A DNA stretch of 46,299 bases from a virus, in UHGV virus genome UHGV-0173986; one strand, 5' to 3'. Under the pieces are notes generated by a model. It was not told where the DNA came from. It searched no databases and saw only the letters and a list, made by a program, of their open reading frames with translations. Below, piece by piece: positions 12,932 through 46,154 of the stretch (position 1 is the first letter of the stretch; each line of letters begins with the position of its first letter). The position numbers and the translations under genes were made by a program.

Positions 12932-12971
12932 GCCTGAACAACCTATACCTGCTGCGTCGCGGAGAGAAACC

Positions 12972-13564: not shown

Positions 13565-14595
13565 TGCGAGCTTTGCTTAACGTGGATATTGCACGCCATC
13601 TTGGAATTGTGCTGCTTAAGCCGGGTAGTGAATTAATGCCGTTATTCGGTGCCGGCCGAGTTCTTGTTGAAATGCCGCCGGCAAGCATGAAAAAGATACC
13701 CAGTGGACGTCTTCCTGATGCCCGGCAGCCGTTGCGGGATGATATGGGGATCAGACCTTTTTTCATGAAGAAGGCAGTTATCACTGCAGCTGGTGGGGTT
13801 AGTGCCCTCGAGTCATGGTTGCGTAGGCAGGTTAAAAACTGTCAGTGGACACATTCCGATTACCATCACCTTGAGCTCGTCCCGTTTCGCCATTCGACGG
13901 GTGTAATAATCGCATGCTGGCACTGTGATAATGAGCTGAAAAACCAAACAGAACAAACCCTCAATCAACTGGTAGGTGTTAACAACGCTGACTGGGTAAT
14001 CGACACTGCCCGCATCGCGCTTGGTCTGGACGCGCAGCGCTCATTGTCACTGGCGGAGCTATGCTGGTGGGCGGTAGGCGCCGGGATTGGCGATGAAATT
14101 ACAGAAGAAATGGCGCGCCGATCCCTGCGTATTAAAGGCGATGGCATTAAATCGGTTTACAGGGAGAGTGAGATTGTTCCGTCTGTACCGGCCACCAGTA
14201 TTCTTTCTCCCCGTCTCGAAAAAACAATCAAGCCAACGGCAATAACAACGCCGGGCAAACCTCTGGTTCCTGTGAACGTCGATCCTGTTGCTCCGGCGAC
14301 ACTATTCGCGAGACCTAAGCGGAGCCGATGGTTATCAGCTGACTTTATCTCATGGGTTAAAAAACAGCCGTGTATGTGCTGCGGGCAGCCTGCAGATGAT
14401 GCACACCATCTTATTGGCTGGGGGCAGGGCGGCGTAGGCACCAAGGCCAACGATATTTTTACGATCCCATTATGCCGCAAGCACCACCGTGCTTTGCACC
14501 ATGACCCTGCCGCTTTTGAGCGTGAATACGGCACCCAGCCGGTATTGATTATTAAATTGCTGGACCGGGCATACGCGCTCGGCGTTCTGGCGTAG
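13564..14595 (+). CDS. DUF968-domain protein (YdfU-like, lambdoid nin/late-regulation region)
   Basis: C-terminal Cys/His motif ...CMCCGQPADDAHHLIGWGQGGVGTKANDIFTIPLCRKHHRALHHDP typical of DUF968. It precedes the Q-like gene, as in Qin. Confidence 0.65.
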   Translation: MRALLNVDIARHLGIVLLKPGSELMPLFGAGRVLVEMPPASMKKIPSGRLPDARQPLRDDMGIRPFFMKKAVITAAGGVSALESWLRRQVKNCQWTHSDYHHLELVPFRHSTGVIIACWHCDNELKNQTEQTLNQLVGVNNADWVIDTARIALGLDAQRSLSLAELCWWAVGAGIGDEITEEMARRSLRIKGDGIKSVYRESEIVPSVPATSILSPRLEKTIKPTAITTPGKPLVPVNVDPVAPATLFARPKRSRWLSADFISWVKKQPCMCCGQPADDAHHLIGWGQGGVGTKANDIFTIPLCRKHHRALHHDPAAFEREYGTQPVLIIKLLDRAYALGVLA

Positions 14596-14611
14596 TAAGG
14601 AGAAGAACAGA

Positions 14612-15214
14612 ATGACACCACGTCAACGCCGTCTGCACCGTGCAGGATTAGAAACAGTGGCCGCCGTCCCGCGCAAAAGCTGGCTGGGCCGATTCACTCC
14701 CCTTAATGGTATTCAGTCCGCCTGGATAAAATCTCTGCTTACTGTTTGGGGGGAAGGGATGAGAGGAGGTGCAGCCCCGCGTAAACCATCAGGACATTCA
14801 TGCTGGCGAGGTATAAAGGGTGATCACTGGTCAGATAGAGCATTAGAGCGCTTTACGGCAGCAATCGAGCAGGCAAGGAGTGAAGGCTATCGCGGGCGGC
14901 AGGCACTAAGCAGGGCGCATGCCATTTTGTGGCCAAAACCTCCAACTGTTGCCATTGACGCTGCGATCACTGAGGATGATGTTGAATTTGTTGAACGATG
15001 TGTACTGGCGATATTTGAAACGGGTGATCCTGTTTATCTCGTTGGCGTTAACTATTACACCACCCGCAAAAAAATCTCAGACATAACACGGGAAATACAG
15101 CTGGTGGCTCCATGGTTAACAGACAGTGAGGCCCGGAAAAGAGTGCGCTGGTGCCTTGAAATATTCAGAGCAAAAGCTTTCCTTTCTGTTCATAAGGCGA
15201 TTCATGCGGATTAG
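14612..15214 (+). CDS. Candidate late-gene antiterminator (Q-like), assigned mainly by position
   Basis: 200-aa basic protein following DUF968 (as with ydfU-quuQ in Qin). A promoter plus short leader plus intrinsic terminator lie immediately downstream. I recall no direct motif match. Confidence 0.4.
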   Translation: MTPRQRRLHRAGLETVAAVPRKSWLGRFTPLNGIQSAWIKSLLTVWGEGMRGGAAPRKPSGHSCWRGIKGDHWSDRALERFTAAIEQARSEGYRGRQALSRAHAILWPKPPTVAIDAAITEDDVEFVERCVLAIFETGDPVYLVGVNYYTTRKKISDITREIQLVAPWLTDSEARKRVRWCLEIFRAKAFLSVHKAIHAD

Positions 15215-15242
15215 CAAAAAGTGCTATGTTGCCTTTTTGGTA

Positions 15243-15271
15243 TTGAAAATGGGCCAGAAAGTTAGATAATT
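15243..15271 (+). promoter_or_regulatory. Candidate late promoter (PR'-like): TTGAAA-17 nt-ATAATT
   Basis: TTGAAA at 15243-15248 and ATAATT at 15266-15271 with 17-nt spacing, about 30 nt after the Q-like stop. Confidence 0.4.
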
Positions 15272-15334
15272 CCTTCATGCTTGGCAGAGCTGCGCCACTC
15301 GGCAGCGACAAAAAGCGACAATCTGAATATAACG

Positions 15335-29817: not shown

Positions 29818-30152
29818 CCAGCGAGCTTGATTTTGTCCTGAAGCTGGCGCGTGAGTTCGGGCGACCTGACTGGCGCGCCATGCTTGCTGGCATGACGTCC
29901 TCCGAGCTGGGCGACTGGCATCACTTTTACCGGGAGCGTTTTTTTCAGGACGCGCAGCTCGATGCCCACTTCTCCGGGCTGCTTTACACCATTTCAACCT
30001 TCTTATACCGGGATCCGGACATCACCCCTGCACACTTCAGCCTGCTGTCTCCCTCCGCTGAGGCTGCAGCGGATAATATACAGGACGATGAAGCCATGAT
30101 GCTGGCCGCGGAGGGAATTACAGGAGGCACCAGATATGGCCCAGCAGATTAG
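29389..30152 (+). CDS. T: gpGT fusion product made by a programmed -1 ribosomal frameshift near 29805-29811 (slippery GGAAAAG just before the G stop)
   Basis: The -1 frame from ...GCGGAAAAGCCC continues [57 protein letters not shown]... to 30152. Same position and logic as lambda G/GT. Confidence 0.6.
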
Positions 30153-33100
30153 CGACCTTGTCATTAACCTGGATGTCGACAGCGCCACATTCACCGAACA
30201 GATTGCCAGGATTAAGGGGCAACTGTCCGGTGTGGCGAATGAGTCGGAAAAAGTGCAGACGCGCATGCGCAGTGCGGCAGAGGCGCAAATCACCGCGCTT
30301 AAAACGACCTGCGATGCCGGTGCCGGCGCCGTGTCCGATATGCAGAGGCGGCAGGCGGATGCCGCCGCCGGGCTTCAGAACGAATTGCAGCGGGTCTCCA
30401 AATCGGTCGATGAGACTTACCAGCGCGTCACCGGGTTAAACCAGCGTTATCGGGAGAACGACGCTCAGGCAGAGGCGCTGGCGCGGCGGCAGGATGCGCT
30501 GGCGGAATCGTTCTTTCGGCAGATAGATGGCGTTCGATCCCTCAGTGGTGAAACACGGTCGCTGGCCAGTGTACAGGAACAATTCCGCAAGGCCCGCGCG
30601 CAGGGGAACATCACTCAGGGTGATTATCTCTCCCTGATTTCCCGCACTACGGCACGGCAGAAAGAACTCCAGCAGGTTGAGGAAAAAGCGAACCAGGCTC
30701 GCCAAAAATTTCTTCGCCAGCTTAAGGCCCAGGTGGTCGAACAAAAACTATCTGGCACTGAGCTGCTGAGAATGAAAGCCGCGCAGGTAGGCGCCAGCGA
30801 TGCTGCTGAAGTTTATATCCGCAAACTGGAAGCGGCAAAGGTCGCAACGCACAGCCTTGGTTTCGAGAGCGCCGGCGCACGTCGGGAGCTTGGTGTTCTG
30901 GCTGGAGAGTTATTGCGGGGCAACTTCGGCGCTCTGCGTGGCTCCGGGATAACCCTGGCGAATCAGGCCGGGTGGCTCGAAAAAATGATGACGCTACGCG
31001 GACTGGGGATCGCTGGCGTGGTCGGTGGCATAGCCGCATCCGTCGTTCTGCTGGGAAAGGCGTGGTACGAGGGCGGGAAGGAAGCCGAGGAGTTTAACAA
31101 ACAGCTCATTCTCACCGGGAACTATGCCGGTAAAACCTCGGGACAACTGCAGGCGCTGGCACGGAACATCTCAGGAAATGGAGTCACTCAGCACGCCGCG
31201 GCAGCCGTATTAGCGCAGGTTGTGGGAAGCGGGGTATTCGGCGGCGCCGACGTCGAACGGATTGCCAATGTGGCTGCGAGGCTTCAACAGGCTACCGGCC
31301 AGGCTGTGGATGAAACCATTAACCAGTTTAAGCGGCTAAAAGAAGATCCGGTTAATGCGGTCGCAACGCTGAATGAATCTCTGCATTTTCTGACCGCAAG
31401 TCAGTTTGAGCAGATTTCAGCTGCTCAGGCGATGGGCGATTCTCAACGCGCTGCCGAGCTCGCGATGCGCGCATATTCAGATGCTGTTATCCAGCGCGCA
31501 AATGCAGTAAAGGACAACCTGGGAACGCTGGAAACGGCGTGGAACTGGGTTAAAAATGCCGCCAGCGGCGCCTGGGATGCCATGATGGACATTGGTCGTA
31601 ATCCTGATGCTGCCATGAAGCGGCAGGGGGCTTTTGCAGAATGGCAGGCCGCGGAAAAAGAACGCCGTCAACTGGCCGCCAATCTAAACGTCGATCCCAA
31701 CTATTCCGGTAATAACCCCCTCATTAAGGCTGATGCAGAACGTTTGCGTATTGCCACTCAACGTGCTGAGTTGCTGAAACAAACTTATGATGAGGCCGAT
31801 AAAGCATACGCTAAGGAAGGTTTAGCCGCGGCACGCGAGAAGCTGCGTAACGAACAACAACAGCAAGCCATCAGGAACCAGCAGCAGTTTAATCAACTTC
31901 TGGAAGCAGGCCTTAAGCCAGCAGAAAGACGGGCTCGCGCCCAGGCCGAATTTAATAAGCTCGTTGAGAAAAACAAGCAAGATGCGATCGATGGGATTGC
32001 CACCCGCTGGACAGCCAGCGATATAGAAAAAATCCGCGCAAGTATTGATGCCAGGTACAAAGACCCTAAAACCCCGAAAGGGAGGCAGTACACAACACCC
32101 GCCGGGAGTAAAGCAGAGGAAGGGGCCCAGGCCGAATTACTGACCCTGCAGGCTCAGTTGAAAACCCTCCAGCAGCATACAGACGTCAACGACGTGATCA
32201 GTAAGCAACGTCGGGATCTCTGGCAGGCAGAAAATCAGTATGCTGTTTTGCAGGAAGCGGCCGGCCGCCGCCAGCTCTCCGCCCAGGAAAAATCACTGCT
32301 GGCCCACAAAAACGAAACCCTGGAATACAAACGTCAGCTGGCAGATCTCGGTGATAAGGTCGCCCGGCAGCAGAAGCTGAATAATCTGGCAGATCAGGCC
32401 AATAAATTCGCTCAGCAGCAGAGTGCGATCCGGGCGGGGATCAAGGCTCAGGCCGACGGACTTTCCGGCAGGGAAGCGAACAGAAGAAGCACGCTTGAAA
32501 AGCTGAGTGAAACGTACGCCTTCAATCCTGATGCGCAGCGCAAGGTGCTGGAGGAACAGCAAGCCACCTATGAAGCCGAGGACGCATTGCGCGGTAACTG
32601 GCTGGCCGGCGCCAAACAGGGCTGGGCAGAGTATCAGGATTCCGCCACTAATGTATTTTCCTCTGTTCAACAAATATCCCAGGCTACCTTCGGGGGGCTG
32701 GCAAATCAGCTGACATTGCTCAATACCACCGGCAAAGCGAGTTTTAAGGAATTCACCACATCCATTCTGAAGATGATCGCTCAGGTCATCGATCAGCTTA
32801 TTGTGGCCTACACCTTTCAGGCTGCAATGGGGTGGATCAGCGGCGGGAGCAGTTCTTCAAATTCTGGTCAGTCTTTTGCCGTTCCTTCCTATCGTCCCTC
32901 TGGCTTTGATGGTGGTGGTTATACCGGGCATGGTGGTAAGTACGAGCCCGCGGGGGTTGTCCACCGCGGCGAATTCGTTTTCACCAAAGAGGCAACCAGC
33001 CGCATCGGCGTGAGCAACCTGTACCGGATGATGCGTGGTTATGCTTCAGGCGGGTATGTTGGTGCTGGTGGTGCGCCTGCAGGTGTATTCGCAGGCGGCG

Positions 33101-33279
33101 TGAATGTCTATGCGCCTGTCAGCGTGACAACACAGCAGACTGGAAACAATCTGCAGCAGGGTAATTCTGATTCTGTCGGAAAAGCTTATCAGCAGGTTGT
33201 AAATCGATCCGTGCAGGATGGGATAGCTAAAGCGCTGCGTCCGGGTGGACTTATCTGGAATGCAACTAACCGGAGGTAA
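30136..33279 (+). CDS. H: Tail tape-measure protein gpH
   Basis: 1047 aa, largely alpha-helical and coiled-coil, with a C-terminal Gly-rich segment. Position between GT and M. Confidence 0.9.
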
Positions 33280-33283
33280 TATT

Positions 33284-33631
33284 ATGGCAATTGAAACATT
33301 CGCCTGGCGTATTCAGGCAGCCAGTCAACCTACGTTAAAAAGCAAAGATAATATCCGGAGGGTTCAATTTGGTGATGGCTATGCACAGGTATCCGGGAAC
33401 GGCATAAATAATGAAACACTGAGTTATGAGTTCTCTTTTTCTGGCGACCCGGATACTGCTCTAGAAATTTATAAATTTTTGCGTCGTCACAAAACCAAGG
33501 CGTTTTCTTTTAAACCGCCAGGTGGTGAATTAGCGTTGTGGCGGGTTCAGGCCGACAGCCTGCAAAAAGTTATTCAGGGAAAGAAAGTCATCACCATTAC
33601 TGCAACGTTTGAACAGGCATTCGTACCATGA
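33284..33631 (+). CDS. M: Minor tail protein gpM
   Basis: MAIETFAWRIQAASQPTLKSKDNIRRVQFGDGYAQVSGNGIN... (lambda M: ...VRKVRFGDGYSQRAPAGLNANL...). GGAGG RBS. Confidence 0.85.
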   Translation: MAIETFAWRIQAASQPTLKSKDNIRRVQFGDGYAQVSGNGINNETLSYEFSFSGDPDTALEIYKFLRRHKTKAFSFKPPGGELALWRVQADSLQKVIQGKKVITITATFEQAFVP

Positions 33632-34383
33632 GTCTTCACGCTGATTATCAGAAACTGGAGCCGGGAGATGAAATCCGGCTATTCGAAATTGACGGAAGTG
33701 CTTTTAATATGGGTGATATTTTATATTTTCACGGATATAACATACCCCATACCGAAGCGGAAATTGTGGCTGCTGGTGGCGATGAATCGAAGCTACCGGC
33801 CAAAAGCATCTGGTGGCAGGGCATCGAATATAAAGCATGGCCTTGTGAATTAGAGGGGATCGAATCCTCGACTTCAGGAAGCGACGCGCAGCCGACACTG
33901 AGGGTAGGCAACATTGATGGTTCGATTTCCGCGCTCTGTCTTCATTACGACGATCTGGCTCTGGCGCGGGTTGTCATCCACGATACGCAAAAACAGTATC
34001 TCGATGCGAAGAACTTTCCGGACGGGAATGCTTCAGCTGATCCGACACAGGAGAAACGGCGCCTTTTCTTCATCGACGTAAAGCATTATGAAGACGATGA
34101 GAAGGTGGAATTTACTCTCTCCAGCCCGTTTGCCCTGCAGGGGATGATGATCCCCACTCGCCAGCTGCATGCGATTTGCAGCTGGTGTATTCGCAATCAG
34201 TACCGCAGTGGTAACGGGTGCGATTATGCCGGCACCCGGTATTTTGACAGGAACAATCAGCCAGTTGATGACCCGTCGCAGGATGTCTGCCCCGGCACGC
34301 TCACGGCCTGCAAATTACGTCATGGTGAGAATAGTGAACTGCCGTTTGGCGGGTTCCCTGGCACCTCATTAATCAGGAGCTGA
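33628..34383 (+). CDS. L: Minor tail protein gpL
   Basis: 251 aa with a C-terminal Cys cluster ...CSWCIRNQYRSGNGCDYAG...CPGTLTACKLRHG as in lambda L. Confidence 0.85.
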   Translation: MSLHADYQKLEPGDEIRLFEIDGSAFNMGDILYFHGYNIPHTEAEIVAAGGDESKLPAKSIWWQGIEYKAWPCELEGIESSTSGSDAQPTLRVGNIDGSISALCLHYDDLALARVVIHDTQKQYLDAKNFPDGNASADPTQEKRRLFFIDVKHYEDDEKVEFTLSSPFALQGMMIPTRQLHAICSWCIRNQYRSGNGCDYAGTRYFDRNNQPVDDPSQDVCPGTLTACKLRHGENSELPFGGFPGTSLIRS

Positions 34384-34384
34384 T

Positions 34385-35095
34385 ATGCGTCAGAAAACGA
34401 TTAAGGCCATCCAGGAACATGCCGCCGCAGAATATCCGCGCGAGGCCTGCGGCCTTGTCGCCCAGAGGGGCCGGGCGGAGCGTTATTTCCCCTGCCGGAA
34501 CCTGGCCACAGAGTCGAAAGATAATTTTGTGCTGGCGCCGGAGGATTATGCGGAGGTTGAGGAATGGGGAGCGATCACCGGTATTGTTCACAGCCATCCT
34601 GATGCCACCACCCAGCCGAGCGAACTGGATAAAGCACAATGCGACACGACCCTTCTCCCCTGGCATATTATCAGCTGGCCAGAAGGCGATCTCCGTACCA
34701 TTCACCCGCGTGGTGAGTTGCCGCTCCTCGAGCGACCATTCGTGCTGGGCCACTACGATTGCTGGGGCCTGGTGATGAGCTATTTTCGGCAAACCCACGG
34801 CATCGAGCTGCACGATTACCGCGTCGACTATCCGTGGTGGGAAAAGGAGTATCCCGATAATTTTTATCAGGACTGCTGGTATGAATGCGGGTTCCGTGAG
34901 TTTGATGGTCCACCGCAACCGGGTGATATGGTTATCATGCAGGTGCAGGCGGATAAGTGGAACCACGCCGGGATTTTGCTGGAAGGGAACATGCTACTTC
35001 ACCATTTGTATGGTCACCTGAGTCAGCGCGTGCCCTATGGCGGGTACTGGCAGGAAAGAACAATGAAAATCGTCAGGTATTTTTCACTATGTTAA
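34385..35095 (+). CDS. K: Tail tip protein gpK (MPN/JAB + NlpC/P60 domains)
   Basis: ...EACGLVAQRG... and HSHPDATTQPSELD (JAB motif) followed by ...HYDCWGLVMSYF... (NlpC/P60 Cys). Confidence 0.85.
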   Translation: MRQKTIKAIQEHAAAEYPREACGLVAQRGRAERYFPCRNLATESKDNFVLAPEDYAEVEEWGAITGIVHSHPDATTQPSELDKAQCDTTLLPWHIISWPEGDLRTIHPRGELPLLERPFVLGHYDCWGLVMSYFRQTHGIELHDYRVDYPWWEKEYPDNFYQDCWYECGFREFDGPPQPGDMVIMQVQADKWNHAGILLEGNMLLHHLYGHLSQRVPYGGYWQERTMKIVRYFSLC

Positions 35096-35126: not shown

Positions 35127-35717
35127 ATGCATGAAGTTATGATGCGAATTGAACTGAACGGGCCGTTGGGGAAACGGTTTGGGAAAATTCATCACCGACT
35201 TATTTCCACCACTAAAGAGGCGGTGGTGGCGCTGGCAAAAACAATTCCTGGATTTGAAAAGTTCATGATCACCAGCGAAGACCGTGGATTAACCTATGCG
35301 ATATTTCAGGATGAAAAAAATATAGGGCTGGATGATCTTGGTTTTCCTGTGAATGGTGACGTGATACGGATAACGCCGGTTGTTATCGGGAGTAAAAAGG
35401 CGGGGCTTTTACAAACTATTCTCGGTGCAGTCCTTGTTGTTGTGGGGGTCATTTCCACATTCACTCCGGCTAATGCGGCCGCACCATATCTTTATAGTAC
35501 AGGAGCATCAATGATGCTCGGCGGCGTCGTTCAGATGCTTTCCCCACAGCCAGCAGGCCTGGCACGAAAAGAATCCGCTGACAATAAAGCGTCCTACGCC
35601 TTTGGGGGCGTGACGAATACTGCCTCTCAGGGATATCCGGTCCCTTTGCTTTATGGCAAACGCCGAATTGGCGGCGCCATTATATCTGCCGGTATTTACA
35701 CAGAAGATCAGCAATAA
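35127..35717 (+). CDS. I: Tail assembly protein gpI
   Basis: 196 aa with a C-terminal hydrophobic/Gly-rich segment. Conserved position between K and J. Confidence 0.75.
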   Translation: MHEVMMRIELNGPLGKRFGKIHHRLISTTKEAVVALAKTIPGFEKFMITSEDRGLTYAIFQDEKNIGLDDLGFPVNGDVIRITPVVIGSKKAGLLQTILGAVLVVVGVISTFTPANAAAPYLYSTGASMMLGGVVQMLSPQPAGLARKESADNKASYAFGGVTNTASQGYPVPLLYGKRRIGGAIISAGIYTEDQQ

Positions 35718-35779: not shown

Positions 35780-38700
35780 ATGGCAAATAACATCATTAAA
35801 GGGCGCAAGGGTGGCGGCTCAAAGCAGCGTACACCGACGGAACAGCCGGATGATTTACAGTCCGTTGCGAAAGCCAAAATTCTGCTCGCATTAGGTGAGG
35901 GTGAATTTGCAGGTGGTTTAACCGGTAAAGATATTTATCTTGATGGCACCCCGCTTGAAAATGCTGATGGTTCGCAAAACTTCAGTGGCGTGTCCTGGGA
36001 ATTTCGCCCCGGCACGCAGGCTCAGACTTATATTCAGGGTATTCCCGGTACTGAAAATGAAATCAGTGTGGGATTGGAAGTTTCCAGCAAGACAGCCTGG
36101 ACCCATACCTTTACTAATACCCAGCTTTCTGCCGTTCGTTTTCGTCTGAAATGGCCGTCCCTGATGAAACAGGAAGATGACGGCGACGTGGTGGGCAATA
36201 CCGTCAGGTATGCGATTGACCTGCAGACCGACGGCGGCGCCTGGCAGACGGTGCTGGAAACCGCTGTCTCGGGTAAAACCACCACCGGTTATGAGCGGAG
36301 CCATCGTATTGATCTGCCCCAGGCCGGCAGTACTTGGACGCTACGTCTGCGTAAAATCTCTCCGGATGCAAACAGTGTCAAAACTGGCGACGTGATGACG
36401 CTGCAGAGCTATACCGAAGTGATTGACGCGAAGCTGCGTTATCCCAACACCGCACTGCTTTATATCGAGTTCGACTCCAGCCAGTTTAATGGCTCCATTC
36501 CGCAAATTTCCTGTGAGCCGCGTGGGCGCGTGATCCGGGTGCCGGATAACTACAATCCGGAAACCCGCGAATATACCGGCGTCTGGACCGGCGGGTTTAA
36601 ATGGGCCTGGACGGATAACCCGGCCTGGATCTATTACGACATTGTTATCGCTGACCGTTTTGGTCTCGGCAATCGTCTGAGCAGCGCCAATATTTCGAAA
36701 TGGACGTTGTACCAGATTGCACAGTACTGCGATCAGCTGGTTCCTGACGGGCGCGGTGGTGACGGCATGGAGCCGCGCTATACCTGTAACGTCTATGTCC
36801 AGGAACGCAACGATGCTTACACCGTGCTGCGAGATTTTGCCGCCATCTTCCGGGGCATGACCTGCTGGAACGGTGAGCAGATTGTTGTGCTGGCTGATAT
36901 GCCGCGTGATGTCGATTTTACTTATACGCGCGCCAATATTGTCGGCAAACCCCGTTATTCGAGCAGCAGCAGCCAGGTTCGGTACACCAACGCCCTGGTT
37001 TCCTGGTCTGATCCGGATAATGCTTATGCTGATGCGATGGAGCCTGCGTTTATCCCTGAACTGGTTTCCCGCTACAGTTTTAACCAGCTCGAAATGACCG
37101 CGATTGGCTGTACGCGCCAGAGCGAAGCCCACCGTAAGGGACTGTGGGGCATACTGACCAACAATAAGGACCGCATGGTCGAAATTGATGTGGGGCTGGA
37201 CGGTCGCATTCCTCAACCCGGTTATATCATTGCCCTGGCGGATGAGTTGCTGGCCGGACGGGTCAACGGCGGGCGAATCAGCGCGGTGAATGGCCGGGTG
37301 ATTACGCTGGATCGTGATGTGGATGCCAAACCTGGCGACCGCCTCCAGCTAAACCTGCCATCAGGGATCTCACAGAGCCGGACCATTCAGGCTGTTAATG
37401 GACGCCGGCAGATTACGGTCACAACGGCGTACAGTGAGACGCCGGAACGGGAATGCGTCTGGGCCATTGAATCCGATGACCTCTTCCTGCAGCAGTACCG
37501 GGTTACAGGGGTAAAAGAGAACAACGATGCCACCCTCACGATCACCGGCGTGGCACATGACCCGGATAAATTCGCCCGCATCGATACCGGCGCTATTATC
37601 GACCAACGCCCGGTTAGCGTATTGCCGGCGGGCAACCAGTCACCTCCTGACGATATTGTCATCACATCCCGCTCGGTCGTGAATCAGGGGATCAGCGTCG
37701 AAACGATGCAGGTTAACTGGTCAGCGGTCAGCGGTGCTATTGCCTACGAGGCGCAGTGGCGCCGTAACGACGGGAACTGGATTAATGTGCCGCGCAGCTC
37801 GACCACCTCGTTTGAGGTCAGCGGCATCTATGCCGGTCGTTACCTGGTTCGCGTCCGCGCGATCAATGCGGCGGAGATTTCGAGCGGGTGGGCGTATTCC
37901 GAAGAGAAAACCCTGACCGGCAAGGTCGGCGAGCCGCTGGCACCGCTGGCGCTGGCAACCCGTTCGCTGGTTCATGGGGTCCAGGTTAGCTGGGAGTTCC
38001 CGACCGGCTCCGGGGATACGCTGCGCACGGAACTGCAGTACAGCAAAAATCAGGACGGCAGTGCGCCGATGCCGTTATCAGACGTGGCCTATCCGGGGAA
38101 AAGCTATCAGCAGATGGGCCTCAGTATGGGCGCAGAATTCTGGTATCGGGCGCGCCTTGTTGATCGTCTGGGCAATGAAAGCCCGTGGACCGGCTGGGTC
38201 CAGGGGATGGCCAGCGATAACTTTGATGACTACTACGAAAACCTGACTGACGCGATCAAGGATACGGCTGCCTGGGAGGAAACGCAGCGTACCATTAGCG
38301 AAACGCAGGAAGGTATCCGCAATACGCAGCAGGAACTGGAGCAGACCGCTGAAGAGCTGCGTCAGGAAGCCGCAGATCAGGCGAAGCAGGTCAGCCAGAA
38401 TATTGATGCATCGGCGAAAAGCATCACTGCTGATGTGAATCAGCAGATAGCAGTTTTGAGCAAGTCGCTTGCCGACGGCGATGCCGCATTGAATGCGCAG
38501 ATTAAAACTGCCGAGAATGGCCTGAAGCAGTCGTTGTCTCAGGTCAACACCACGTTAACCAATGCGGTTAAGCAGGAAACTGCGGATCGTATCGCAGATA
38601 TTAACGCGAAGGCGGCACAGGCTGCTGATGAACTGCTGGCGGCAACGCAGGGGATTGAGGCGAGTATCGAGAGCCTGACTCAGGTAATGAAGAGTGCCGA

Positions 38701-41700
38701 TGAAAATCTGGCGCGGGAAATGTCCAGCCTCGCTGCCGGCGCCAATATCCAGTTCGATTCGCAGGTTATCTGGCATTTCAACAGTCAGACGACCGAGGGC
38801 TGGACCGGCAGCGCCGGCGTACCGGGTGTGTCCCGGGATGGCTGGTTACGCCCTGCGGACAGCGCCACCGATCCGTACATTACCTCTCCCGGCGGTCTGG
38901 CTGTCGATGGTGCAGCGTACCGCTTCATCATGCTGCGCTTTCGTAAAACCGGCAAACCAGTCTGGGCGGGTGAGATCCGTTGGGTGTCTGCCGGCGAAAA
39001 CTTTAATAACACGAAGCGATACATTGTTGCTGAGCCGGAATATGCCGATGGGGTGGCAACCCTGACGGTGCGTGATATTCCGTGGACAGGGAACATTGAT
39101 CGTATTCGCCTGGACCTGACGAACCAGCAGGATGCCAGCAACTTTATCGAATTCGACTGGATCGCCGTTGGCCGGCCAGCACCCGGCGCCAGTACGGCGG
39201 CTCTGCAGGATGTGCGCAGTACGCTGAGTAACGCGCTGACCTCCGAAGCACAGGCACGCAGCACGCTGGCGGCGCAGATGCGTGGCTCCTATGATGGCAG
39301 CGATCTGGAGAAAGTCACCTCCGGGCTGCTATACCAGGAAAAAACGGCGCGCGTTACCGCCATCCAGGCGGAAGTTAAGGCCAGAGAGTCCCTTCAGACG
39401 CAGTTTAACGACAACAAAGCTGCTGTTTCTGGTGAACTGAGTTCTCTGACGACAGAGCAGCGCGCGCAGGCGAGCCGTATCGGTGGTCTGGAAACCAGCC
39501 TCGGGAAAAAAGCCGATGCGACCGCGCTGACGTCCCTGACGCAGAAAGTTGAGCAACAGGGCGCCACGCTGACATCGCAGGGCGCCGCGTTAACATCACT
39601 CACTAACCGGGTGGGCCAGACGGAAACGGGCCTGGCTGGTACGAATGAGGCGCTGAGCGGGCTGCAGTCTGTTGTTACCCGTCAGGGCGACAGGATAACC
39701 AGCCAGGGTCAGTCCATCACAAAACTGACGAGCGATTTGGGCACGACAAATTCCGCGCTGGTGAAGAAAGCCGAAGCGGCTGCGGTCACTGCCTTAACGC
39801 AGCAGGTGGAGCAAAACGGGCGGGATATTCGCAGCAATACTGACAGTATCACCCGCCTGTCGAATCAGCTGGTCAATGGCCAGCCGAATAGCTGGTCCCG
39901 TCGGATCTATCCTGTGCAGCTGGCTAACGCCGTGACAGTCCCGTCATTCAGCGATATTCGCGCCGTGGCGCCAGTGGTCGTGGATGAGGTGGCCGACGCG
40001 ACCAGACTGGACTTTACGTCCGCCGGGAGCTATCTGATCGCGCTGTATTCCTGCCAGGTGAAAGTGGCGGCCGATACCACCATCACAATGACGCCCGGTA
40101 ACAGGGTTTTTGATGATACCGGTGCTGTATTTGTAAATGGCGTTCAGGTTGCCTGGGGAAACGCCAGCTGGACTACCGTCAGTTTTGATCTGAAAGCCGG
40201 CTGGAACACAGTTGAGTTTCTGGTGAATCAGTGGGCTGGCCAGGCGTATATCAACCTGGGACTGAAGCTGTCAGACAAGGTTGCTGAGATGTACTCCGGT
40301 CTCGGTGTTTCCGCGCTGGCAAACGCAGCCGGCGTACTCAGCTCGAATGTCAGCCAGATTGGCAACCATGTGGTCAGCAATTCGCAGAGCATCACCCAGC
40401 TCCGGAATGCGCTGACGCAGACAGACGCGAATGTGGCCAGCAAAGCGGATCAGACGGCGATGAACTCCCTAACCGGACGAGTGGAGAAGACGGAGTCCGG
40501 TCTGACGGCGGCGAACAGCAACATTACGTCGCTCAGCAGCTCTCTGAGCCAGCAATCCAAACGCGGCGCTAATCTGCTTCCTGATGGCACTTTTGAAAGT
40601 TACGCGGTTGGTCACAATCTGGCGAATAACCGTGCCATCGTGACCACTGACGACTCGCATGGCGGCAATAAATGCATTCGTGTGACGCGTCCGAATGACT
40701 ACAATGCCAATGCAACTGACAACACTGACACCCACATTTTCAGCGGATTCCAGGTTCGCGATAACGCAGTCTTCTATATGGAATGCTGGGTTAAGCTGGA
40801 TTCCAGGAGTACCGCTATGGCCGGGAACGTGCAGATTTCCGTCGGCTTATCGCTCCAGTATCAGGACAACTCCTGGCAGTGGCCGGCAGTTACCAAAGCG
40901 GCAAAGGATCTCTCTTCAACTCAATGGACGAAGGTTTCTGGTTACCTGAAATCAACGAAGAGCGGTATTAAGCAGGCAATGGTCAGGATTTCTATTCCTA
41001 ACGTTAGCAGCGTTAAGGCGGGTAACTCATTCCTCATTGATGACCTGGTCATTACCGAAGTGACTGATGCCTACAATGCGCAAAGTACAGCAGATGCTAA
41101 CGCTAATGCGATTTCAACACTGAACTCGACCGTATCCCAACAGGGCGGCCAGATCAACAGTCAGGGTAACAGCATCACTAAACTGATAAATGACCTGGCG
41201 ACGACTAATAATAACGTCAGCAATAAAGCAGACGCTAATGCTCTGACGGCACTGACCAACCGTGTTACCCAGACCGAAAAAGACATTAACTCAACGAGTT
41301 CTTCTGTCACGAATCTGAACAACAAGGTTGATGCAATTTCTGTCGGGGGTACAAACCTGATCAAGAACTCCGGCGATATGACCGGCTGGTCGAACGTTGT
41401 CAGCGATACGTATCGTGGTAACGCGGTAATTAGCGCAACTGTAAAAGCCGGCGCCGGTTACAGGGATTTGCGGGAAATCACGCTTGAGTCGCCGGTCGAT
41501 GCAGGGGAGTACGTTTACAGCTTCTATGCGAAAGGCGGCGTTGCTGGCCAGACGATGACGGCGTTCTTCTACAATCCGAACACCACAACGTCTATCGAGA
41601 CCAGCCAGGGTGCGAAAGGTAACAACACTGATGGTCGTGCGCAGTTCACGCTGACCACTTCATGGGCCCGTTATTGGGTTAAGTGGAAACAGACACCTAC

Positions 41701-44596
41701 CACGGGCACGAAGCGCCTGATTCTGTGCCGTATCGAGAGCAATACCTCCAAAGACCAGACGGTGTACATCAACAGTCCGAAGTTTGAGGTAGGTAACGTT
41801 GTTTCCGACTGGAACGAGTCTCCGTCTGATAGCGCCAGTGCGTCGGCTGTGGATTCGCTGACAACGAAAGTGAATCAGCAAGGCACTTCCATTAGCTCTA
41901 TCGGAAATCGCACTACATCGTTGGAAAACAGGTTATCGACAGCTCAGAACAACATTGCCAAGAAGGCTGATGCTTCTGCATTGCAGGATCTCCGGAACAC
42001 GGTGACATCTCAGGGGGGCGATTTAACCGCGGCGAACAGTAGCATTACCAGCCTGCAGGCCTCGATGAACCGTCGCACTGTGTTTACTGTCACTGCACGG
42101 GGGAATGGCAACAGCGTAACTCCTGGGGTTTTTGATGAAAGCGGCAAAAACCTGTTTACCCCTGGTCGCAGCTGGGCACTGGTCACTTTTGCAAAACACA
42201 GCAACGGATCAACGGTGATTGCGACATCCAAAACATACGATGTCTTTGGCCGCGCGAATAATGGCGCCACGATGTCGGCTGATATCGAGGCGTTGGCCAG
42301 TGGCACTTACGTTTGCGTCCTGACATTCGATGAGCCATCTGGCAACCGAGGTAAGATATTGTCTGCTCTGGAATCTCTTGGTGGTACATCCGAAGTCGTC
42401 AACTCCCTGCCGTATCGTGGTGCCTATATTCTCCTTGGCCGCAAAGGCATGAGGCCGGGCGATGGTCTGGAACTGCGTGCGCCAACCGGTGGTGACGCCA
42501 CTGCCCACATTTCGACCTCAGTCGAGTTTGTGAACGGGGTAATGATGGGACTGGGCGCCGCCGGCGGTGTGATGATGAAGGCTGATGCGAACGCGTCGGC
42601 AATTACCACGCTCCAGAACACAGTGAAGGCCCAGGGGGGTAATATTGACTCCCTGAGTTCCTCGGTAACGGCGCTGGAGAACAGCCTCAGGTCGACAAAC
42701 GATACGGTGAGTAAAAAGGCCGACACGTCCGCGGTGAGTTCACTGACCGGTCGCGTAAGCCAGGTGGAAAACACCATCACCAGCCAGTCGCAGAGCATCA
42801 CGTCGCTGACCAGCACCATCAATACCATCCGCACTCAGGGAGCTAATCCGTGGGTTGACGGTACGTTCGAAAGCTACGGAGATGGTCATGTGCTGGGCGG
42901 GAGAGGCACCGCCGTTGTGGTGGAGTCGCAGAAATTCACCGGCAATAAGAGCCTGCAGGTGAGCCGGGGGGCGAACAATAACGGCAACAGCGATAAACAG
43001 CTTGGGAGCTGGCAGTCAGTCCGTGAGGATGCGAAGTTCCGGTTTGAGTTCTGGGCCATGATGCCGTCGGATCAGAAACCCTCCTCCGGGTGGACAACGC
43101 TGGTCGGTATCAACTCACTGAATGCTGCTGGTCAAAACTCCTGGCAGTCGGCGGTCACTGTCAGCGAAGCCGCTCTTGGTGCGCGTGATAAGTGGGTGAA
43201 ATTTACGGGTATTGCCAGTAACAACGGGGGTGGCAGAACACGCGCGGTGGTCTGGATCTCCACCCGTGGCGCCTCCGGCAGCGGCACCCCCGGTTATTCG
43301 CTGTATATCGACGATCTGGTTATCACGGATGTTACCGATGCGAAAGCGGCACAGGATGCCTCTGACGCGACGGCGAGTGCCGTAAGCGGTCTGACGGCTC
43401 GCGTAACGGATGCCGAAGGGAAAATCACTGCCCAGGCGCAGCAGCAGACGGCACTGGCCACGAAAGTGGATAACGCCAACTCCCGCGTCGATAACATGGC
43501 GAAGACGCTGAGCGACAGCCAGAGCACACAGGCCAGCCTGAATACCTCGCTTCAGTCGCAGATTGACGCCCAGGCGGCCGCCAACATCAAAAACCAGACG
43601 ACGCTGGACAACACGATTAAATCGGTGGCCAGTATCACCAGTACCCAGCAGACGCATGCAACGGCACTGGAGGCGCTGGCAACGCAGCAGACGACCCTGA
43701 CATCCAGTGTCGGGGATCTCAGCGCTTCCGTTCAGAACACCGCTAAAACCGTGGCGGATGTGAATGGTACGGTGAGTTCGCTGTGGTCGATGAAGGTTGA
43801 GACGGTTAACGGGAAGAATGTTGGCGCGGGGATTACGCTGGGCAGCAATGGTCAAACGAGCGACATGATCCTCTACGCCGACCGCTTCTCGCTGTTTAAC
43901 CGTAACAATGCGACGGCAGTGCCGGTGATGATTGCCGAAGGCAATGAACTGTATATCGATACGGCACGTATCAAAAACAGTTCCCTGACCTCAACCAAAA
44001 TCGCGGACGGTTCCATCACGAACGCGAAGATCGGCAACGAGATCCGCTCGAATAACTTTGTTGACGGGTCGCAAGGCTGGCGTATCGCCAAGGATGGCTC
44101 TTCGCAGTTCAATAACGTGATCGTTCGTGGCAGGGTCGAAGCGAATAGCGGCGTGTTCCGTGGCACTGTCCAGGCGGATGCGTTCATCGGTGACATTGCG
44201 GTGGCAAAAGGTTACGACAGCCTGACCTTCCGCCGCAACCAGACGGTACAGCGGAACGGTGCGTATCAGAATAGGGGGTATAGCATGACAGTGGTTCTGG
44301 CCTGCACCCTGGTGTGCCAGACCTATGGGACGGGCAGTGGCCTGGGGTATACCTCTGATATTACGTTCAACATTGGTGGGCAGGAGGTAACCCGCCGTAT
44401 CTTCGTCGATGCCGGTAATATCACAGCTGGCACCACGGCCTTTGAATTGCGGTTTGCCGCGCGCCTGAATGCTGACTACAACAATGTCGGCTTCTTTATC
44501 AAGGCTACAGGTCGAAATGCCGCGATTGATTACACCTGCACAGTCGAGAACATCACCGCAACCGCCTTCCGAACGGACAGCAGTTCATTTAGCTAA
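35780..44596 (+). CDS. J: Central tail fiber / host-specificity protein J, greatly extended (2938 aa versus about 1130 in lambda)
   Basis: The N-terminal ~1100 aa is J-like (MANNIIKGRKGGGSKQRTPTEQPDD..., FN3-type repeats). A middle ~1700 aa holds three blocks of tail-fiber-type repeats (KADxxAL/VxxLTxRVxQxE...) each followed by a CBM-like beta-sandwich segment (GTFESYAVGHNLANNRAIV..., GTNLIKNSGDMTGWS..., NPWVDGTFESYGDGHVLGGRGTAVV...). A C-terminal ~250 aa distal domain closes it. Confidence 0.85.
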   Translation: MANNIIKGRKGGGSKQRTPTEQPDDLQSVAKAKILLALGEGEFAGGLTGKDIYLDGTPLENADGSQNFSGVSWEFRPGTQAQTYIQGIPGTENEISVGLEVSSKTAWTHTFTNTQLSAVRFRLKWPSLMKQEDDGDVVGNTVRYAIDLQTDGGAWQTVLETAVSGKTTTGYERSHRIDLPQAGSTWTLRLRKISPDANSVKTGDVMTLQSYTEVIDAKLRYPNTALLYIEFDSSQFNGSIPQISCEPRGRVIRVPDNYNPETREYTGVWTGGFKWAWTDNPAWIYYDIVIADRFGLGNRLSSANISKWTLYQIAQYCDQLVPDGRGGDGMEPRYTCNVYVQERNDAYTVLRDFAAIFRGMTCWNGEQIVVLADMPRDVDFTYTRANIVGKPRYSSSSSQVRYTNALVSWSDPDNAYADAMEPAFIPELVSRYSFNQLEMTAIGCTRQSEAHRKGLWGILTNNKDRMVEIDVGLDGRIPQPGYIIALADELLAGRVNGGRISAVNGRVITLDRDVDAKPGDRLQLNLPSGISQSRTIQAVNGRRQITVTTAYSETPERECVWAIESDDLFLQQYRVTGVKENNDATLTITGVAHDPDKFARIDTGAIIDQRPVSVLPAGNQSPPDDIVITSRSVVNQGISVETMQVNWSAVSGAIAYEAQWRRNDGNWINVPRSSTTSFEVSGIYAGRYLVRVRAINAAEISSGWAYSEEKTLTGKVGEPLAPLALATRSLVHGVQVSWEFPTGSGDTLRTELQYSKNQDGSAPMPLSDVAYPGKSYQQMGLSMGAEFWYRARLVDRLGNESPWTGWVQGMASDNFDDYYENLTDAIKDTAAWEETQRTISETQEGIRNTQQELEQTAEELRQEAADQAKQVSQNIDASAKSITADVNQQIAVLSKSLADGDAALNAQIKTAENGLKQSLSQVNTTLTNAVKQETADRIADINAKAAQAADELLAATQGIEASIESLTQVMKSADENLAREMSSLAAGANIQFDSQVIWHFNSQTTEGWTGSAGVPGVSRDGWLRPADSATDPYITSPGGLAVDGAAYRFIMLRFRKTGKPVWAGEIRWVSAGENFNNTKRYIVAEPEYADGVATLTVRDIPWTGNIDRIRLDLTNQQDASNFIEFDWIAVGRPAPGASTAALQDVRSTLSNALTSEAQARSTLAAQMRGSYDGSDLEKVTSGLLYQEKTARVTAIQAEVKARESLQTQFNDNKAAVSGELSSLTTEQRAQASRIGGLETSLGKKADATALTSLTQKVEQQGATLTSQGAALTSLTNRVGQTETGLAGTNEALSGLQSVVTRQGDRITSQGQSITKLTSDLGTTNSALVKKAEAAAVTALTQQVEQNGRDIRSNTDSITRLSNQLVNGQPNSWSRRIYPVQLANAVTVPSFSDIRAVAPVVVDEVADATRLDFTSAGSYLIALYSCQVKVAADTTITMTPGNRVFDDTGAVFVNGVQVAWGNASWTTVSFDLKAGWNTVEFLVNQWAGQAYINLGLKLSDKVAEMYSGLGVSALANAAGVLSSNVSQIGNHVVSNSQSITQLRNALTQTDANVASKADQTAMNSLTGRVEKTESGLTAANSNITSLSSSLSQQSKRGANLLPDGTFESYAVGHNLANNRAIVTTDDSHGGNKCIRVTRPNDYNANATDNTDTHIFSGFQVRDNAVFYMECWVKLDSRSTAMAGNVQISVGLSLQYQDNSWQWPAVTKAAKDLSSTQWTKVSGYLKSTKSGIKQAMVRISIPNVSSVKAGNSFLIDDLVITEVTDAYNAQSTADANANAISTLNSTVSQQGGQINSQGNSITKLINDLATTNNNVSNKADANALTALTNRVTQTEKDINSTSSSVTNLNNKVDAISVGGTNLIKNSGDMTGWSNVVSDTYRGNAVISATVKAGAGYRDLREITLESPVDAGEYVYSFYAKGGVAGQTMTAFFYNPNTTTSIETSQGAKGNNTDGRAQFTLTTSWARYWVKWKQTPTTGTKRLILCRIESNTSKDQTVYINSPKFEVGNVVSDWNESPSDSASASAVDSLTTKVNQQGTSISSIGNRTTSLENRLSTAQNNIAKKADASALQDLRNTVTSQGGDLTAANSSITSLQASMNRRTVFTVTARGNGNSVTPGVFDESGKNLFTPGRSWALVTFAKHSNGSTVIATSKTYDVFGRANNGATMSADIEALASGTYVCVLTFDEPSGNRGKILSALESLGGTSEVVNSLPYRGAYILLGRKGMRPGDGLELRAPTGGDATAHISTSVEFVNGVMMGLGAAGGVMMKADANASAITTLQNTVKAQGGNIDSLSSSVTALENSLRSTNDTVSKKADTSAVSSLTGRVSQVENTITSQSQSITSLTSTINTIRTQGANPWVDGTFESYGDGHVLGGRGTAVVVESQKFTGNKSLQVSRGANNNGNSDKQLGSWQSVREDAKFRFEFWAMMPSDQKPSSGWTTLVGINSLNAAGQNSWQSAVTVSEAALGARDKWVKFTGIASNNGGGRTRAVVWISTRGASGSGTPGYSLYIDDLVITDVTDAKAAQDASDATASAVSGLTARVTDAEGKITAQAQQQTALATKVDNANSRVDNMAKTLSDSQSTQASLNTSLQSQIDAQAAANIKNQTTLDNTIKSVASITSTQQTHATALEALATQQTTLTSSVGDLSASVQNTAKTVADVNGTVSSLWSMKVETVNGKNVGAGITLGSNGQTSDMILYADRFSLFNRNNATAVPVMIAEGNELYIDTARIKNSSLTSTKIADGSITNAKIGNEIRSNNFVDGSQGWRIAKDGSSQFNNVIVRGRVEANSGVFRGTVQADAFIGDIAVAKGYDSLTFRRNQTVQRNGAYQNRGYSMTVVLACTLVCQTYGTGSGLGYTSDITFNIGGQEVTRRIFVDAGNITAGTTAFELRFAARLNADYNNVGFFIKATGRNAAIDYTCTVENITATAFRTDSSSFS

Positions 44597-44657: not shown

Positions 44658-46154
44658 ATGGCGATGTATGAAGTCGGCACCGTCACGGGTGCAGCGTCGC
44701 AAGCACGGGTGACAGGTGCGACAACAAAATGGTCACAGGTGGCGCTGGGGATACTGCCCGGGTCGATTCTGGTGGTCTACCGCAGCGGTAGTGCTGACCT
44801 GTATGCGATCAAATCTGTGGACAGCGACACGCAACTGACGCTGACCCGGAATATCACCACCGCATTTTCCGGTGCCTCTTACGGCATTATTACAGCTGAA
44901 ACCGCCAGCACCTCGTCGTTTGCTAACCAGCTGGCCAGCGCGTTTGCATTCTGGCGTAGTGTAGTGGAGGGCTGGTCGATGGCCCTGACCGGCAGCGGCA
45001 ATATTACCCTGACTGACCCGATCACAGGAAAGCAGGTGACCGTGCCGGCGATAGCCGGGATGGCGAAAGCATCGGATCTTAACGCGCTGGCAAAACTCAC
45101 CGGAGGAAACAACCTCGCCGGCTCGCAAATTATAACTAGCGATAATTCCGGTTTTATTTTGGGCAGGAACTCAGATCTGGCTCTGCTTAAAAAACAAGGG
45201 CAAGGCGGGACAATTGCCGTCGGCTCGGGAACACCGTTCAGGGTTCAGCGTTCAAGAGCGACCACTGTATCACCGTCAGAAACCTATGATGACATCCTCG
45301 TTATTGGCACCAATAACCAGACGACGTTGCCCGGAGATTTGGTTGTCGGTGGTGGTTTCGATAATACGGCAAAGGGCAAGCTGTATTCCCAGGCGTTAGA
45401 GCTGTCGATGGGCACTCCGTACATCGATTTTCACCATAACAAAAGTGCTAACGACTACACCGCACGCCTCATCACCACCTCTGCAGACCAGCTGAGTGTG
45501 CAGGGAAGCCATCTACGGGTAGACAGAGACCTGCGGGTGGGGCAAGCGGCCGACATCGGCAGTTGGATACAGTGTCGCTATGACTGTGTGTCGCAGCGGA
45601 GCGACTTCGGTTCCCCTGCCATTGGCTCGTTAGTTTCCGGGGGCAGAGTTCGGTCCCGCATATCAGGGCGCGGAGGAAACGGGGACACATCAGGAGCGTG
45701 GGGGGGATTCTACCTTGAGGAGTACGTAGGCACTGAGCACCGGATCGTTCTGTACATGGATGGGTTCGGCAGGACGGACGCGTGGACCTTCCGCTCTGGC
45801 GGTGCCGTCTCCACCCCGAAGGGGGATGTCATGACCACCGGCTCAGACGTGCGGCTGAAAGAGGATTTTACGGAATCCCAGGAAGGGGCCTCCAGGCGTA
45901 TTAACGCGCTGGGGATATGTGAGTTCAACATGAAAGGCGAAACACGCCGTAGGCGTGGATTTATTGCTCAACAAGCTGAAAAAGTTGACCCGATTTACAC
46001 CTTTCAAAGCGGCGATGTAGAAATTGATGGCGAGAAGATCAATATCCTTAACGTAGACCATACGGCCATCATCGCGGATCTTGTTCTTACGGTGCAGGAG
46101 TTAACAAAACAAGTGCGTGATTTGAACAAGCAGGTTCAAACAAAAGAGTACTGA
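44658..46154 (+). CDS. stf: Side tail fiber protein with a C-terminal intramolecular-chaperone (peptidase S74) domain
   Basis: MAMYEVGTVTGAASQARVTGATTKWSQVALGILPGS... fiber N-terminus. C-terminal ...SDVRLKEDFTESQEGASRRINALGICEFNMKGE...RRRGFIAQQAEKVDPIYT... matches the S74 auto-chaperone motif (DxRLKxxI...G.IAQE). Confidence 0.8.
   Translation: MAMYEVGTVTGAASQARVTGATTKWSQVALGILPGSILVVYRSGSADLYAIKSVDSDTQLTLTRNITTAFSGASYGIITAETASTSSFANQLASAFAFWRSVVEGWSMALTGSGNITLTDPITGKQVTVPAIAGMAKASDLNALAKLTGGNNLAGSQIITSDNSGFILGRNSDLALLKKQGQGGTIAVGSGTPFRVQRSRATTVSPSETYDDILVIGTNNQTTLPGDLVVGGGFDNTAKGKLYSQALELSMGTPYIDFHHNKSANDYTARLITTSADQLSVQGSHLRVDRDLRVGQAADIGSWIQCRYDCVSQRSDFGSPAIGSLVSGGRVRSRISGRGGNGDTSGAWGGFYLEEYVGTEHRIVLYMDGFGRTDAWTFRSGGAVSTPKGDVMTTGSDVRLKEDFTESQEGASRRINALGICEFNMKGETRRRRGFIAQQAEKVDPIYTFQSGDVEIDGEKINILNVDHTAIIADLVLTVQELTKQVRDLNKQVQTKEY

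Follow-up and report, generated by a model that had tools for sequence, protein, structure and literature searches.

The window analysed here is the complete stretch of virus genome UHGV-0173986 (46,299 nucleotides (nt), numbered 5' to 3' on one strand), and its J gene raises a simple question: what fills a J protein of 2938 amino acids (aa) when lambda gpJ has 1132? The gene occupies positions 35780-44596 on the plus strand, where a first, sequence-only reading had placed a J orthologue of this length, and this placement was confirmed, since the region is a single uninterrupted open reading frame (ORF) with zero internal stops over 8.8 kb. A Pfam scan of the translation identified FNIII-A_GpJ (PF24801) at aa 91-217 (E=5.5e-46, 156 bits, cutoff 27) and Phage_Tail_Tip / DUF1983 (PF09327) at aa 2651-2792 (E=1.7e-30, 106 bits, cutoff 22), and PHROGs labelled the protein 'central tail fiber J' and PHROG 2589 'tail protein', a profile of 3686 positions. 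When the N-terminal ~850 aa were searched against PDB sequences, the F2 pyocin fibre (E=6e-280) and lambda J (8iyk, E=4e-124) were retrieved. J did not reach the whole-protein cutoff of NCBIfam lambda_TipJ NF049904 (499.8 bits against 1950), but this is an 'exception' model for near-lambda proteins, and the score shows only that the window J is not lambda's own J. As in lambda gpJ (8iyk, 8xck), the gene stands after M, L, K and I, and the order tape measure, M, L, K, I, J is the one expected for the lambda J family. The window also encodes an integrase, a lambda O-like replication initiator and a large terminase (PHROGs), which together with the tape measure gene indicate an integrative lambdoid prophage. 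By homology, the product is thus J, the tail tip hub and central fibre protein of a Klebsiella prophage that is lambdoid and integrative.

The alignment to lambda J falls into two blocks, lambda residues 4-841 matching aa 12-845 and lambda residues 843-1001 matching aa 2649-2810. The hub/FN3 core and the central straight fibre are therefore homologous in both proteins, and the 1803 extra aa of the window J sit at one single lambda position (841/843), where the FN3-bearing core gives way to the central straight fibre; lambda gpJ has nothing there. An insert of about 1700 aa between the J core and the distal domain had been predicted; its location was right, and its size is closer to 1800 aa. 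Since a helix of ~100-130 aa is already present at this position in other solved J-family proteins, the insert can be described as the expansion of a pre-existing neck.

Architecture of the insert

From sequence, composition and AlphaFold2 models (model 1, aa 985-2020; model 2, aa 2090-2938), the insert consists of seven alpha-helical linkers (CC0 to CC6) alternating with six all-beta domains (D1 to D6), the limits of which are given in Table 1. Linkers account for ~880 of the ~1800 inserted residues; they are low in proline, glycine and aromatic residues, and AlphaFold2 predicts long helices for them. A hydrophobic periodicity of 3.4-3.65 residues, of the coiled-coil type, was measured in all seven linkers (z=3.7-10.4 against shuffles), and no periodicity of this type was found in the beta-domain controls. 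The motif KAD..A...L..V occurs in six strict copies and one looser copy (aa 2267), five of the copies lying ~35-45 aa upstream of D2 to D6. The motif GTFESY has two copies only, one in D3 and one in D6.

The sequence-only reading had described the region as three successive blocks of heptad and KAD repeats, each followed by a segment resembling a carbohydrate-binding module (CBM) and bearing GTFESY. The KAD motif, the heptad-like periodicity and the GTFESY pattern (aa 1603 and 2361) are all present, but the threefold scheme does not hold: neither three successive blocks nor a GTFESY segment after each of them was found, and the insert has instead six globular domains, of at least five families, and seven helical linkers. 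Nor is the insert coiled coil only, as it also contains beta-sandwich domains of carbohydrate-binding type. The domain annotation proposed at that stage identified CBM_4_9-like, ILEI, GTA head-spike-fibre and DUF1983 domains along J.

The sole true internal duplication, between aa 1507-1792 and aa 2263-2549 (~40% identity), emerged only from a fragment-wise search, a whole-protein self-BLAST of J returning the identity match alone. At the DNA level, no significant direct repeat was found within the J gene, the best pair being 47 nt long at 70% identity. The internal repeats are for this reason poor substrates for intragenic recombination, and the suggestion that they serve as such in host-range switching could not be upheld.

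Six beta domains of carbohydrate-binding type

Single-sequence Pfam scans of D1, D4 and D6 gave no match, and D2 and D4, searched as shallow profiles, found only weak matches in PDB. For D1, a five-sequence profile searched against PDB matched residues 490-622 of 8gtc chain M (E=8.8e-11), inside the domain of the roseophage R4C Megatron protein (residues 482-629) called 'carbohydrate-binding', a name given by its authors from structural inference (PMC10276861). The D1 model is all-beta, with a predicted local distance difference test score (pLDDT) of ~80-89. D4 scored 37.7 bits (cutoff 36, E=2.9e-9) against NCBIfam NF048003, the GTA head-spike-fibre domain, which was matched by all seven members of the D4-family alignment (best E=1.3e-11); its model is also all-beta (pLDDT 64-85). 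The founding protein of this family, the head-spike fibre of RcGTA, binds capsular polysaccharide experimentally (PMC10218006). D4 relatives are found in Streptococcus PblB and in Enterococcus phage fibres, and Pfam gave a weak CBM_4_9 hint on the PblB and EFDG1 relatives (E=0.019). D5 matched Pfam ILEI (PF15711, E=1.6e-10, 41.8 bits, cutoff 27).

D3 is the best-modelled domain (pLDDT 86-91), and its close relatives carry a precomputed PF02018 (CBM_4_9) match and are named 'carbohydrate binding domain-containing protein' by NCBI. D6 (pLDDT 70-85) shares 38% identity with D3 and has no direct match to Pfam CBM_4_9; a D3/D6 profile searched by sequence against PDB gave no match. In the Foldseek comparison with PDB, CBM22 (4xuo), CBM16 (2zey) and CBM4-2 (2y6k) were matched by model 1 at a target template modelling (TM) score of 0.6-0.72, and CBM22, CBM16 and CBM4-2 by model 2 at 0.45-0.5. 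These fold matches, which would fall on D3 and D6, point to a beta-jelly-roll of the CBM4/9/16/22 group for both domains.

D2, whose model is all-beta (pLDDT 55-78), has just 97 relatives (50%-identity clusters) among 1.84 billion representative proteins in an exhaustive search, almost all of them inside proteins of 1000-6500 aa. A 25-sequence D2 profile matched in PDB the PA14-type lectins of the MpIBP series (5j6y/6x7j, E ~5e-4) and the fungal lectin 6t0q (E=1e-4), with a shared DD..YVNG motif. Pfam PA14 (PF07691) was matched by 3 of the 25 family members (best E=1.5e-6) and a Cadherin-like beta-sandwich by 13. D2 is tentatively PA14-like on these profiles. The D2 type is very rare; the proteins that carry it reach 6542 aa, sometimes with several copies per protein, and this distribution suggests an as yet uncharacterised module that is peculiar to fibre-like proteins of great length.

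Profile-profile comparison by hhalign detected no relation of D3/D6 to D1, D2 or D4, so the six all-beta domains fall into at least five unrelated families, and the possibility that they are diverged copies of one CBM was rejected. The earlier expectation of glycan-binding modules in the tail tip is strengthened by the matches to CBM_4_9, ILEI, NF048003 and Megatron as far as beta-sandwich domains of CBM type are concerned; as judged from these kinships, the insert holds carbohydrate-binding-type beta-sandwich domains, for which sugar binding is plausible.

Another possibility is that the inserted domains are enzymatic, a capsule depolymerase or esterase, and that J itself degrades capsule. 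Depolymerases are common in Klebsiella phages, weak profile matches of the insert touch sialidase or esterase entries, and there is a weak resemblance between a depolymerase anchor and the N-terminal part of the downstream fibre. However, the sialidase and esterase matches cover non-catalytic accessory regions of these entries, each domain is just a beta-sandwich of 140-170 aa, and J, searched in Pfam, NCBIfam, PHROGs and PDB, gave no match to a catalytic domain, whether a beta-helix lyase or hydrolase, an SGNH domain or a sialidase propeller. A depolymerase function of the insert was rejected on the latter ground, and an enzymatic role is, in our view, very improbable.

Integrity of the assembly

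A gene of this length could be an assembly artefact, produced by collapsed, expanded or chimeric repeats, the true J being lambda-sized or otherwise arranged. Most database relatives of J are flagged 'partial', which indicates that such genes often break short-read assemblies, and J is truncated or frameshifted in two records. In that of 48ST307 (4001-15333), the J of 3193 aa is truncated within D6 and the next coding sequence (CDS) is a 'hypothetical protein'; in that of Kpn74 (3001-13797), J is split into several CDS, a 'tail fiber protein' and two annotated 'DUF1983 domain-containing protein'. These broken genes are likely due to frameshifts or sequencing errors in a long gene. On the other side, the independently deposited Klebsiella phage Kp4865-4 shows 99.4% identity along gene nt 1-8348, with the same module map. 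Collinear J genes of 3193-4234 aa (3264-4234 aa on complete chromosomes and plasmids) occur in complete plasmids, phages and chromosomes, the gene contains no long internal DNA repeat able to collapse, and its frame stays open throughout. Because of the Kp4865-4 match, the collinear genes and the lack of long internal repeats, misassembly is unlikely, and a wholly artefactual giant ORF is hardly credible. As explanations of the insert, both the artefact and the depolymerase are poorly supported.

Distal domain and downstream fibre

After the insert, J resumes with the central straight fibre, for which Foldseek with model 2 also matched the lambda gpJ central fibre (8xck) in PDB, and ends in a distal receptor-binding domain (RBD). 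This tip behaves as an exchangeable cassette, which begins near aa 2783 (window nt 44127). The identity with Kp4865-4 ends at gene nt 8348 and the distal domains of the two phages differ, whereas that of the window J is 99.4% identical to the one of telomere phage NAR688; the window J is thus a Kp4865-4 body with an NAR688-type distal RBD. The same domain shares ~73% identity with the tips of J in ~100 Klebsiella phages of the T1-like (Webervirus-type) group. It is unrelated to the LamB-binding domain of lambda and belongs to this Klebsiella-phage tip family.

A separate side tail fibre had been proposed at 44658-46154, and the 498-aa product indeed matched PHROG 1980 tail fiber (E=5e-114) and, at aa 396-445, Pfam Peptidase_S74 (PF13884, E=4.9e-10, 40 bits, cutoff 22). 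It is 98% identical to its Kp4865-4 counterpart and 65% identical to Webervirus tail fibres. The mechanically called ORF begins at 44469, before J has ended; since the alignments with homologues begin at the ATG at 44658, this is likely the true start. The presence of an S74-chaperone fibre gene after J means that a two-fibre adsorption apparatus is encoded.

Table 1. Coordinates of J segments and of other genes in the window
Feature	Position	Strand	Evidence or remark
J conserved core, aa 1-815 (hub domains, FNIII-A, FN3 repeats)	35780..38224	+	Pfam, PDB matches
Linker CC0, aa 816-989	38225..38746	+	2.9% proline plus glycine, 1.7% aromatic; periodicity 3.65, z=10.4
D1, aa 990-1135, Megatron 'carbohydrate-binding' domain homologue	38747..39184	+	profile against PDB
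Linker CC1, aa 1136-1365	39185..39874	+	helical; KAD at 1244, 1330; z=4.2
D2, aa 1366-1507, PA14-like, tentative	39875..40300	+	deeper profile
Linker CC2, aa 1508-1594	40301..40561	+	helical; KAD at 1555; z=3.7
D3, aa 1595-1765, CBM_4_9-like beta-jelly-roll	40562..41074	+	Pfam, fold; GTFESY at 1603
Linker CC3, aa 1766-1855	41075..41344	+	helical; KAD at 1816; z=4.3
D4, aa 1856-2015, GTA head-spike-fibre domain	41345..41824	+	NCBIfam
Linker CC4, aa 2016-2096	41825..42067	+	helical; KAD at 2062; z=5.7
D5, aa 2097-2262, ILEI (FAM3/PANDER-like) domain	42068..42565	+	Pfam
Linker CC5, aa 2263-2353	42566..42838	+	helical; KAD at 2267 and 2313; z=8.0
D6, aa 2354-2522, second CBM_4_9-like domain, D3 paralogue	42839..43345	+	D3 identity, fold; GTFESY at 2361
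Linker CC6, aa 2523-2650	43346..43729	+	continuous helix in AlphaFold2; periodicity 3.5, z=9.8
Central straight fibre, aa 2651-2792, Phage_Tail_Tip / DUF1983	43730..44155	+	PF09327; lambda J 843-1001 alignment
Distal receptor-binding domain, aa 2793-2938 and stop codon	44156..44596	+	
Separate tail fibre, 498 aa, C-terminal intramolecular chaperone	44658..46154	+	
Tape measure gene	30136-33276		PHROGs
M-like gene	33245-33631	+	ORF size like lambda M
L	33628-34383	+	756 nt, size like lambda L and equal to annotated gene of relatives
K / C40 peptidase	34385-35095	+	711 nt, size like lambda K and equal to annotated gene of relatives
I (gpI)	35127-35717 (PHROGs entry 35127-35714)	+	591 nt as in relatives; PHROG 32 tail assembly protein, E=2.7e-75
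Integrase	280-1404	-	PHROGs
Lambda O-like replication initiator	5151-6167	+	

Relatives, mosaicism and host distribution

Most close relatives of the window J sit on phiKO2/N15-like telomere phages, with ParA/ParB downstream. Together with the giant J proteins of telomere phages and SSU5-like elements (48ST307, 3193 aa; KpLi5, 3792 aa; NZ_CP195223, 4234 aa; pJN2-26, 4045 aa), it forms one family, corresponding to PHROG 2589, with 94-97% nt identity in shared segments, equal module types and the same linker motif. Unlike them, the window J is encoded by an integrase-bearing lambdoid prophage; it is also the shortest of the compared set and differs in module number and order. The window integrase and O-like initiator, set against the ParA/ParB of the relatives, indicate that the tail-fibre module moved between integrative and extrachromosomal temperate phages. 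The segment at gene nt 4663-6908 (CC2 to CC5, with D3 to D5) is 93-97% identical in SSU5-like phage-plasmids of ~110 kb, whose own J core is divergent from that of the window.

The megablast breakpoints with intact relatives all lie in helical linkers (aa 886 in CC0, 1321 in CC1, 1555 and 1585 in CC2, 1799-1810 in CC3 and 2298-2330 in CC5) or at aa 2783, before the distal domain; breakpoints elsewhere were seen with the frameshifted Kpn74 record only. These alignments indicate that host-range mosaicism comes about when phages exchange segments, the joints lying in helical linkers and at the tip/RBD junction.

The comparison of J lengths that had been suggested for related prophages was carried out with the J core as anchor and one genome per species. 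Among the 73 complete ORFs, J measured mostly 1050-1290 aa, and proteins of more than 2000 aa were found only in Klebsiella (3264-3447 aa) and near relatives: Pluralibacter (2889 and 2665 aa), Superficieibacter (2291 and 2151 aa) and one Enterobacteriaceae metagenome-assembled genome (2322 aa). Two more loci of more than 4148 aa, in K. pneumoniae ATCC 13883 and on a Limoniibacter endophyticus contig, extend past the retrieved DNA. In every giant J examined the insert opens with D1 and closes with the tail-tip domain, the modules in between varying in type, number and order. The segment CC0-D1-CC1 is also present in J proteins of Xanthomonas phage Xp10 and of Stenotrophomonas phages.

Two records from outside these genera were noted. 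The Limoniibacter contig (NZ_BMZO01000013.1, 52,353 bp, L. endophyticus KCTC 42097) has a J core 99% identical to that of the window and a giant J whose modules are those of the Klebsiella proteins; in size and content the contig resembles a phiKO2-like Klebsiella phage-plasmid, and it is probably a contamination in the assembly of an unrelated genus. NZ_CP195223.1, a circular 'plasmid' of 54.9 kb in RefSeq E. coli strain CRKP-1, is a phiKO2-like phage-plasmid carrying the 4234-aa J, and is the sole match to most of the J gene among 5426 complete E. coli genomes.

Possible role of the insert in adsorption

We consider it fairly probable that the expanded J neck, a string of helical linkers and lectin-type domains ~1800 residues long, contacts the capsule or O-antigen. 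For the window J as for lambda gpJ, a trimer ending in a receptor-binding domain is presumed, and by analogy with lambda J such a trimer would display 18 lectin-type domains along its shaft. The shaft could be up to ~100-130 nm long, the ~880 helical residues at ~0.15 nm each giving ~130 nm as an upper bound. The lectin-type domains would make weak, multivalent and reversible contacts with capsule or O-antigen; such contacts could hold and orient the virion and bring an outer-membrane protein, covered by the thick Klebsiella capsule, within reach of the distal domain, whose binding would then set off DNA ejection, as happens in lambda. The downstream S74-chaperone fibre would act as a second, independent adhesin, and dual receptor engagement is conceivable.

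The main rival to this explanation is that the insert is mainly a length spacer, or ruler, through thick capsule, its beta domains being knobs that stabilise or register the trimer with no specific sugar binding. This is in agreement with the large share of helical linker in the insert, the confinement of giant J to heavily encapsulated genera, the helix already standing at this position in solved J-family proteins, and the fact that no ligand-binding residues were pinpointed in the beta domains. However, it would be strange for inert knobs to be drawn from five different families that each have lectin or CBM kin; phages shuffle and replace these modules as they do specificity determinants, and the founding member of the D4 family binds capsule (PMC10218006). 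We therefore hold a pure spacer role to be rather unlikely.

Several points nevertheless weigh against the lectin-array explanation that we favour. Trimerisation, a straight extended shape and the shaft length are all extrapolated from lambda J and from residue counts, and electron microscopy of NAR688 described 'a central tail spike and multiple long tail fibers', with no obvious fibre of more than 100 nm (PMC12042878). The AlphaFold2 models were built on shallow alignments of 16-24 sequences, and in model 2 D5, the tail-tip domain and the RBD are poorly modelled (pLDDT <50). Foldseek output carries no query ranges, so it is an inference that the CBM matches of ~170 columns belong to D3 and D6; for D1, D2 and D4, the fold was assigned from secondary structure and sequence profiles. 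D3 scored just below the cutoff of Pfam CBM_4_9 (PF02018, E=3.8e-5, 24.5 bits, cutoff 25.9), and D2 of the window itself has no Pfam PA14 match and is weakly assigned. As to the outer-membrane receptor, the Weberviruses NPat and BMac need capsule epitopes and the porin OmpK36, according to Dunstan 2023 as cited in PMC13463945; the connection of the distal RBD with OmpK36 is indirect, through its likeness to Webervirus tips.

A bolder hypothesis could be issued, which we regard as possible but doubtful. The giant J family would be a plug-and-play lectin array, in which the conserved helical linkers, each ended by KAD..L..V, are recombination joints trading glycan-binding modules among integrative prophages, telomere phages, SSU5-like phage-plasmids and lytic T1-like Klebsiella phages. 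The ~100-nm fibre with 18 lectin domains would then be a thick-capsule adaptation, setting the capsule-type host range independently of depolymerases.

The host range of Klebsiella phages is usually explained by capsule depolymerases. The J protein described here suggests a second, enzyme-free route, in which a long central fibre bearing many lectin-type modules of different kinds would explore the capsule or O-antigen, leaving contact with an outer-membrane protein to a swappable tip. The mapped module boundaries (the linker breakpoints and the aa 2783 junction) offer practical cut sites for host-range engineering of temperate phages and phage-plasmids in a priority pathogen. The result also explains the frequent fragmentation of this gene in Klebsiella assemblies, or its annotation as several 'hypothetical' or 'DUF1983' proteins.

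Comparison with other adhesion devices

A long helical shaft with CBM-like beta-sandwiches is shared with Streptococcus PblB, with the tail proteins of Acinetobacter phages ME3/XC38 and with gp20 of mycobacteriophage Douge (8zdp). Acinetobacter phage tail proteins, Streptococcus PblB and CenC-like CBM proteins were among the top Foldseek matches of the window J models in a viral library, and in PDB the Douge central fibre gp20 was aligned over many columns. With PblB, the D4 type is shared at the level of the sequence as well. In contrast to the window J, these proteins are separate or non-J central fibres of unrelated phages, with 10-20% identity outside the shared domain. A helical shaft with CBM-like beads is thus a common design in phage fibres.

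Roseophage R4C and RcGTA share single modules with the window J: D1 is homologous to Megatron 490-622 and D4 scores above the cutoff of the GTA_spike_fibre model. The corresponding R4C and RcGTA parts are used for capsule attachment (PMC10276861, PMC10218006). They differ from the window J in that the domains stand there in a baseplate protein and in a capsid spike, instead of along a central tail fibre, and in that the remaining parts of the proteins are unrelated to it.

The giant J family is already in databases, as PHROG 2589, 'TipJ family phage tail tip protein' and 'host specificity protein J'; one deposited sequence is nearly identical to that of the window, and CBM-decorated phage adhesion devices are a known concept. 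In the literature searched, no paper describing or dissecting giant J proteins was found. The detail gained here (a map of six modules, breakpoints in the linkers, confinement to the Klebsiella clade) is useful but concerns a known kind of system, not a new one.

Other features of the window

Outside the structural genes, the region 8764-12025 encodes a 360-aa regulator with helix-turn-helix and metallopeptidase-like parts on the plus strand, together with two minus-strand ORFs, one of 313 aa without a PHROG match and one for a thymidylate-synthase-like protein of 410 aa; this cluster may be a moron or a defence island. In the early/middle region, a 347-aa HNH endonuclease is encoded at 13552-14592 on the plus strand (PHROG 96, E=4e-137).

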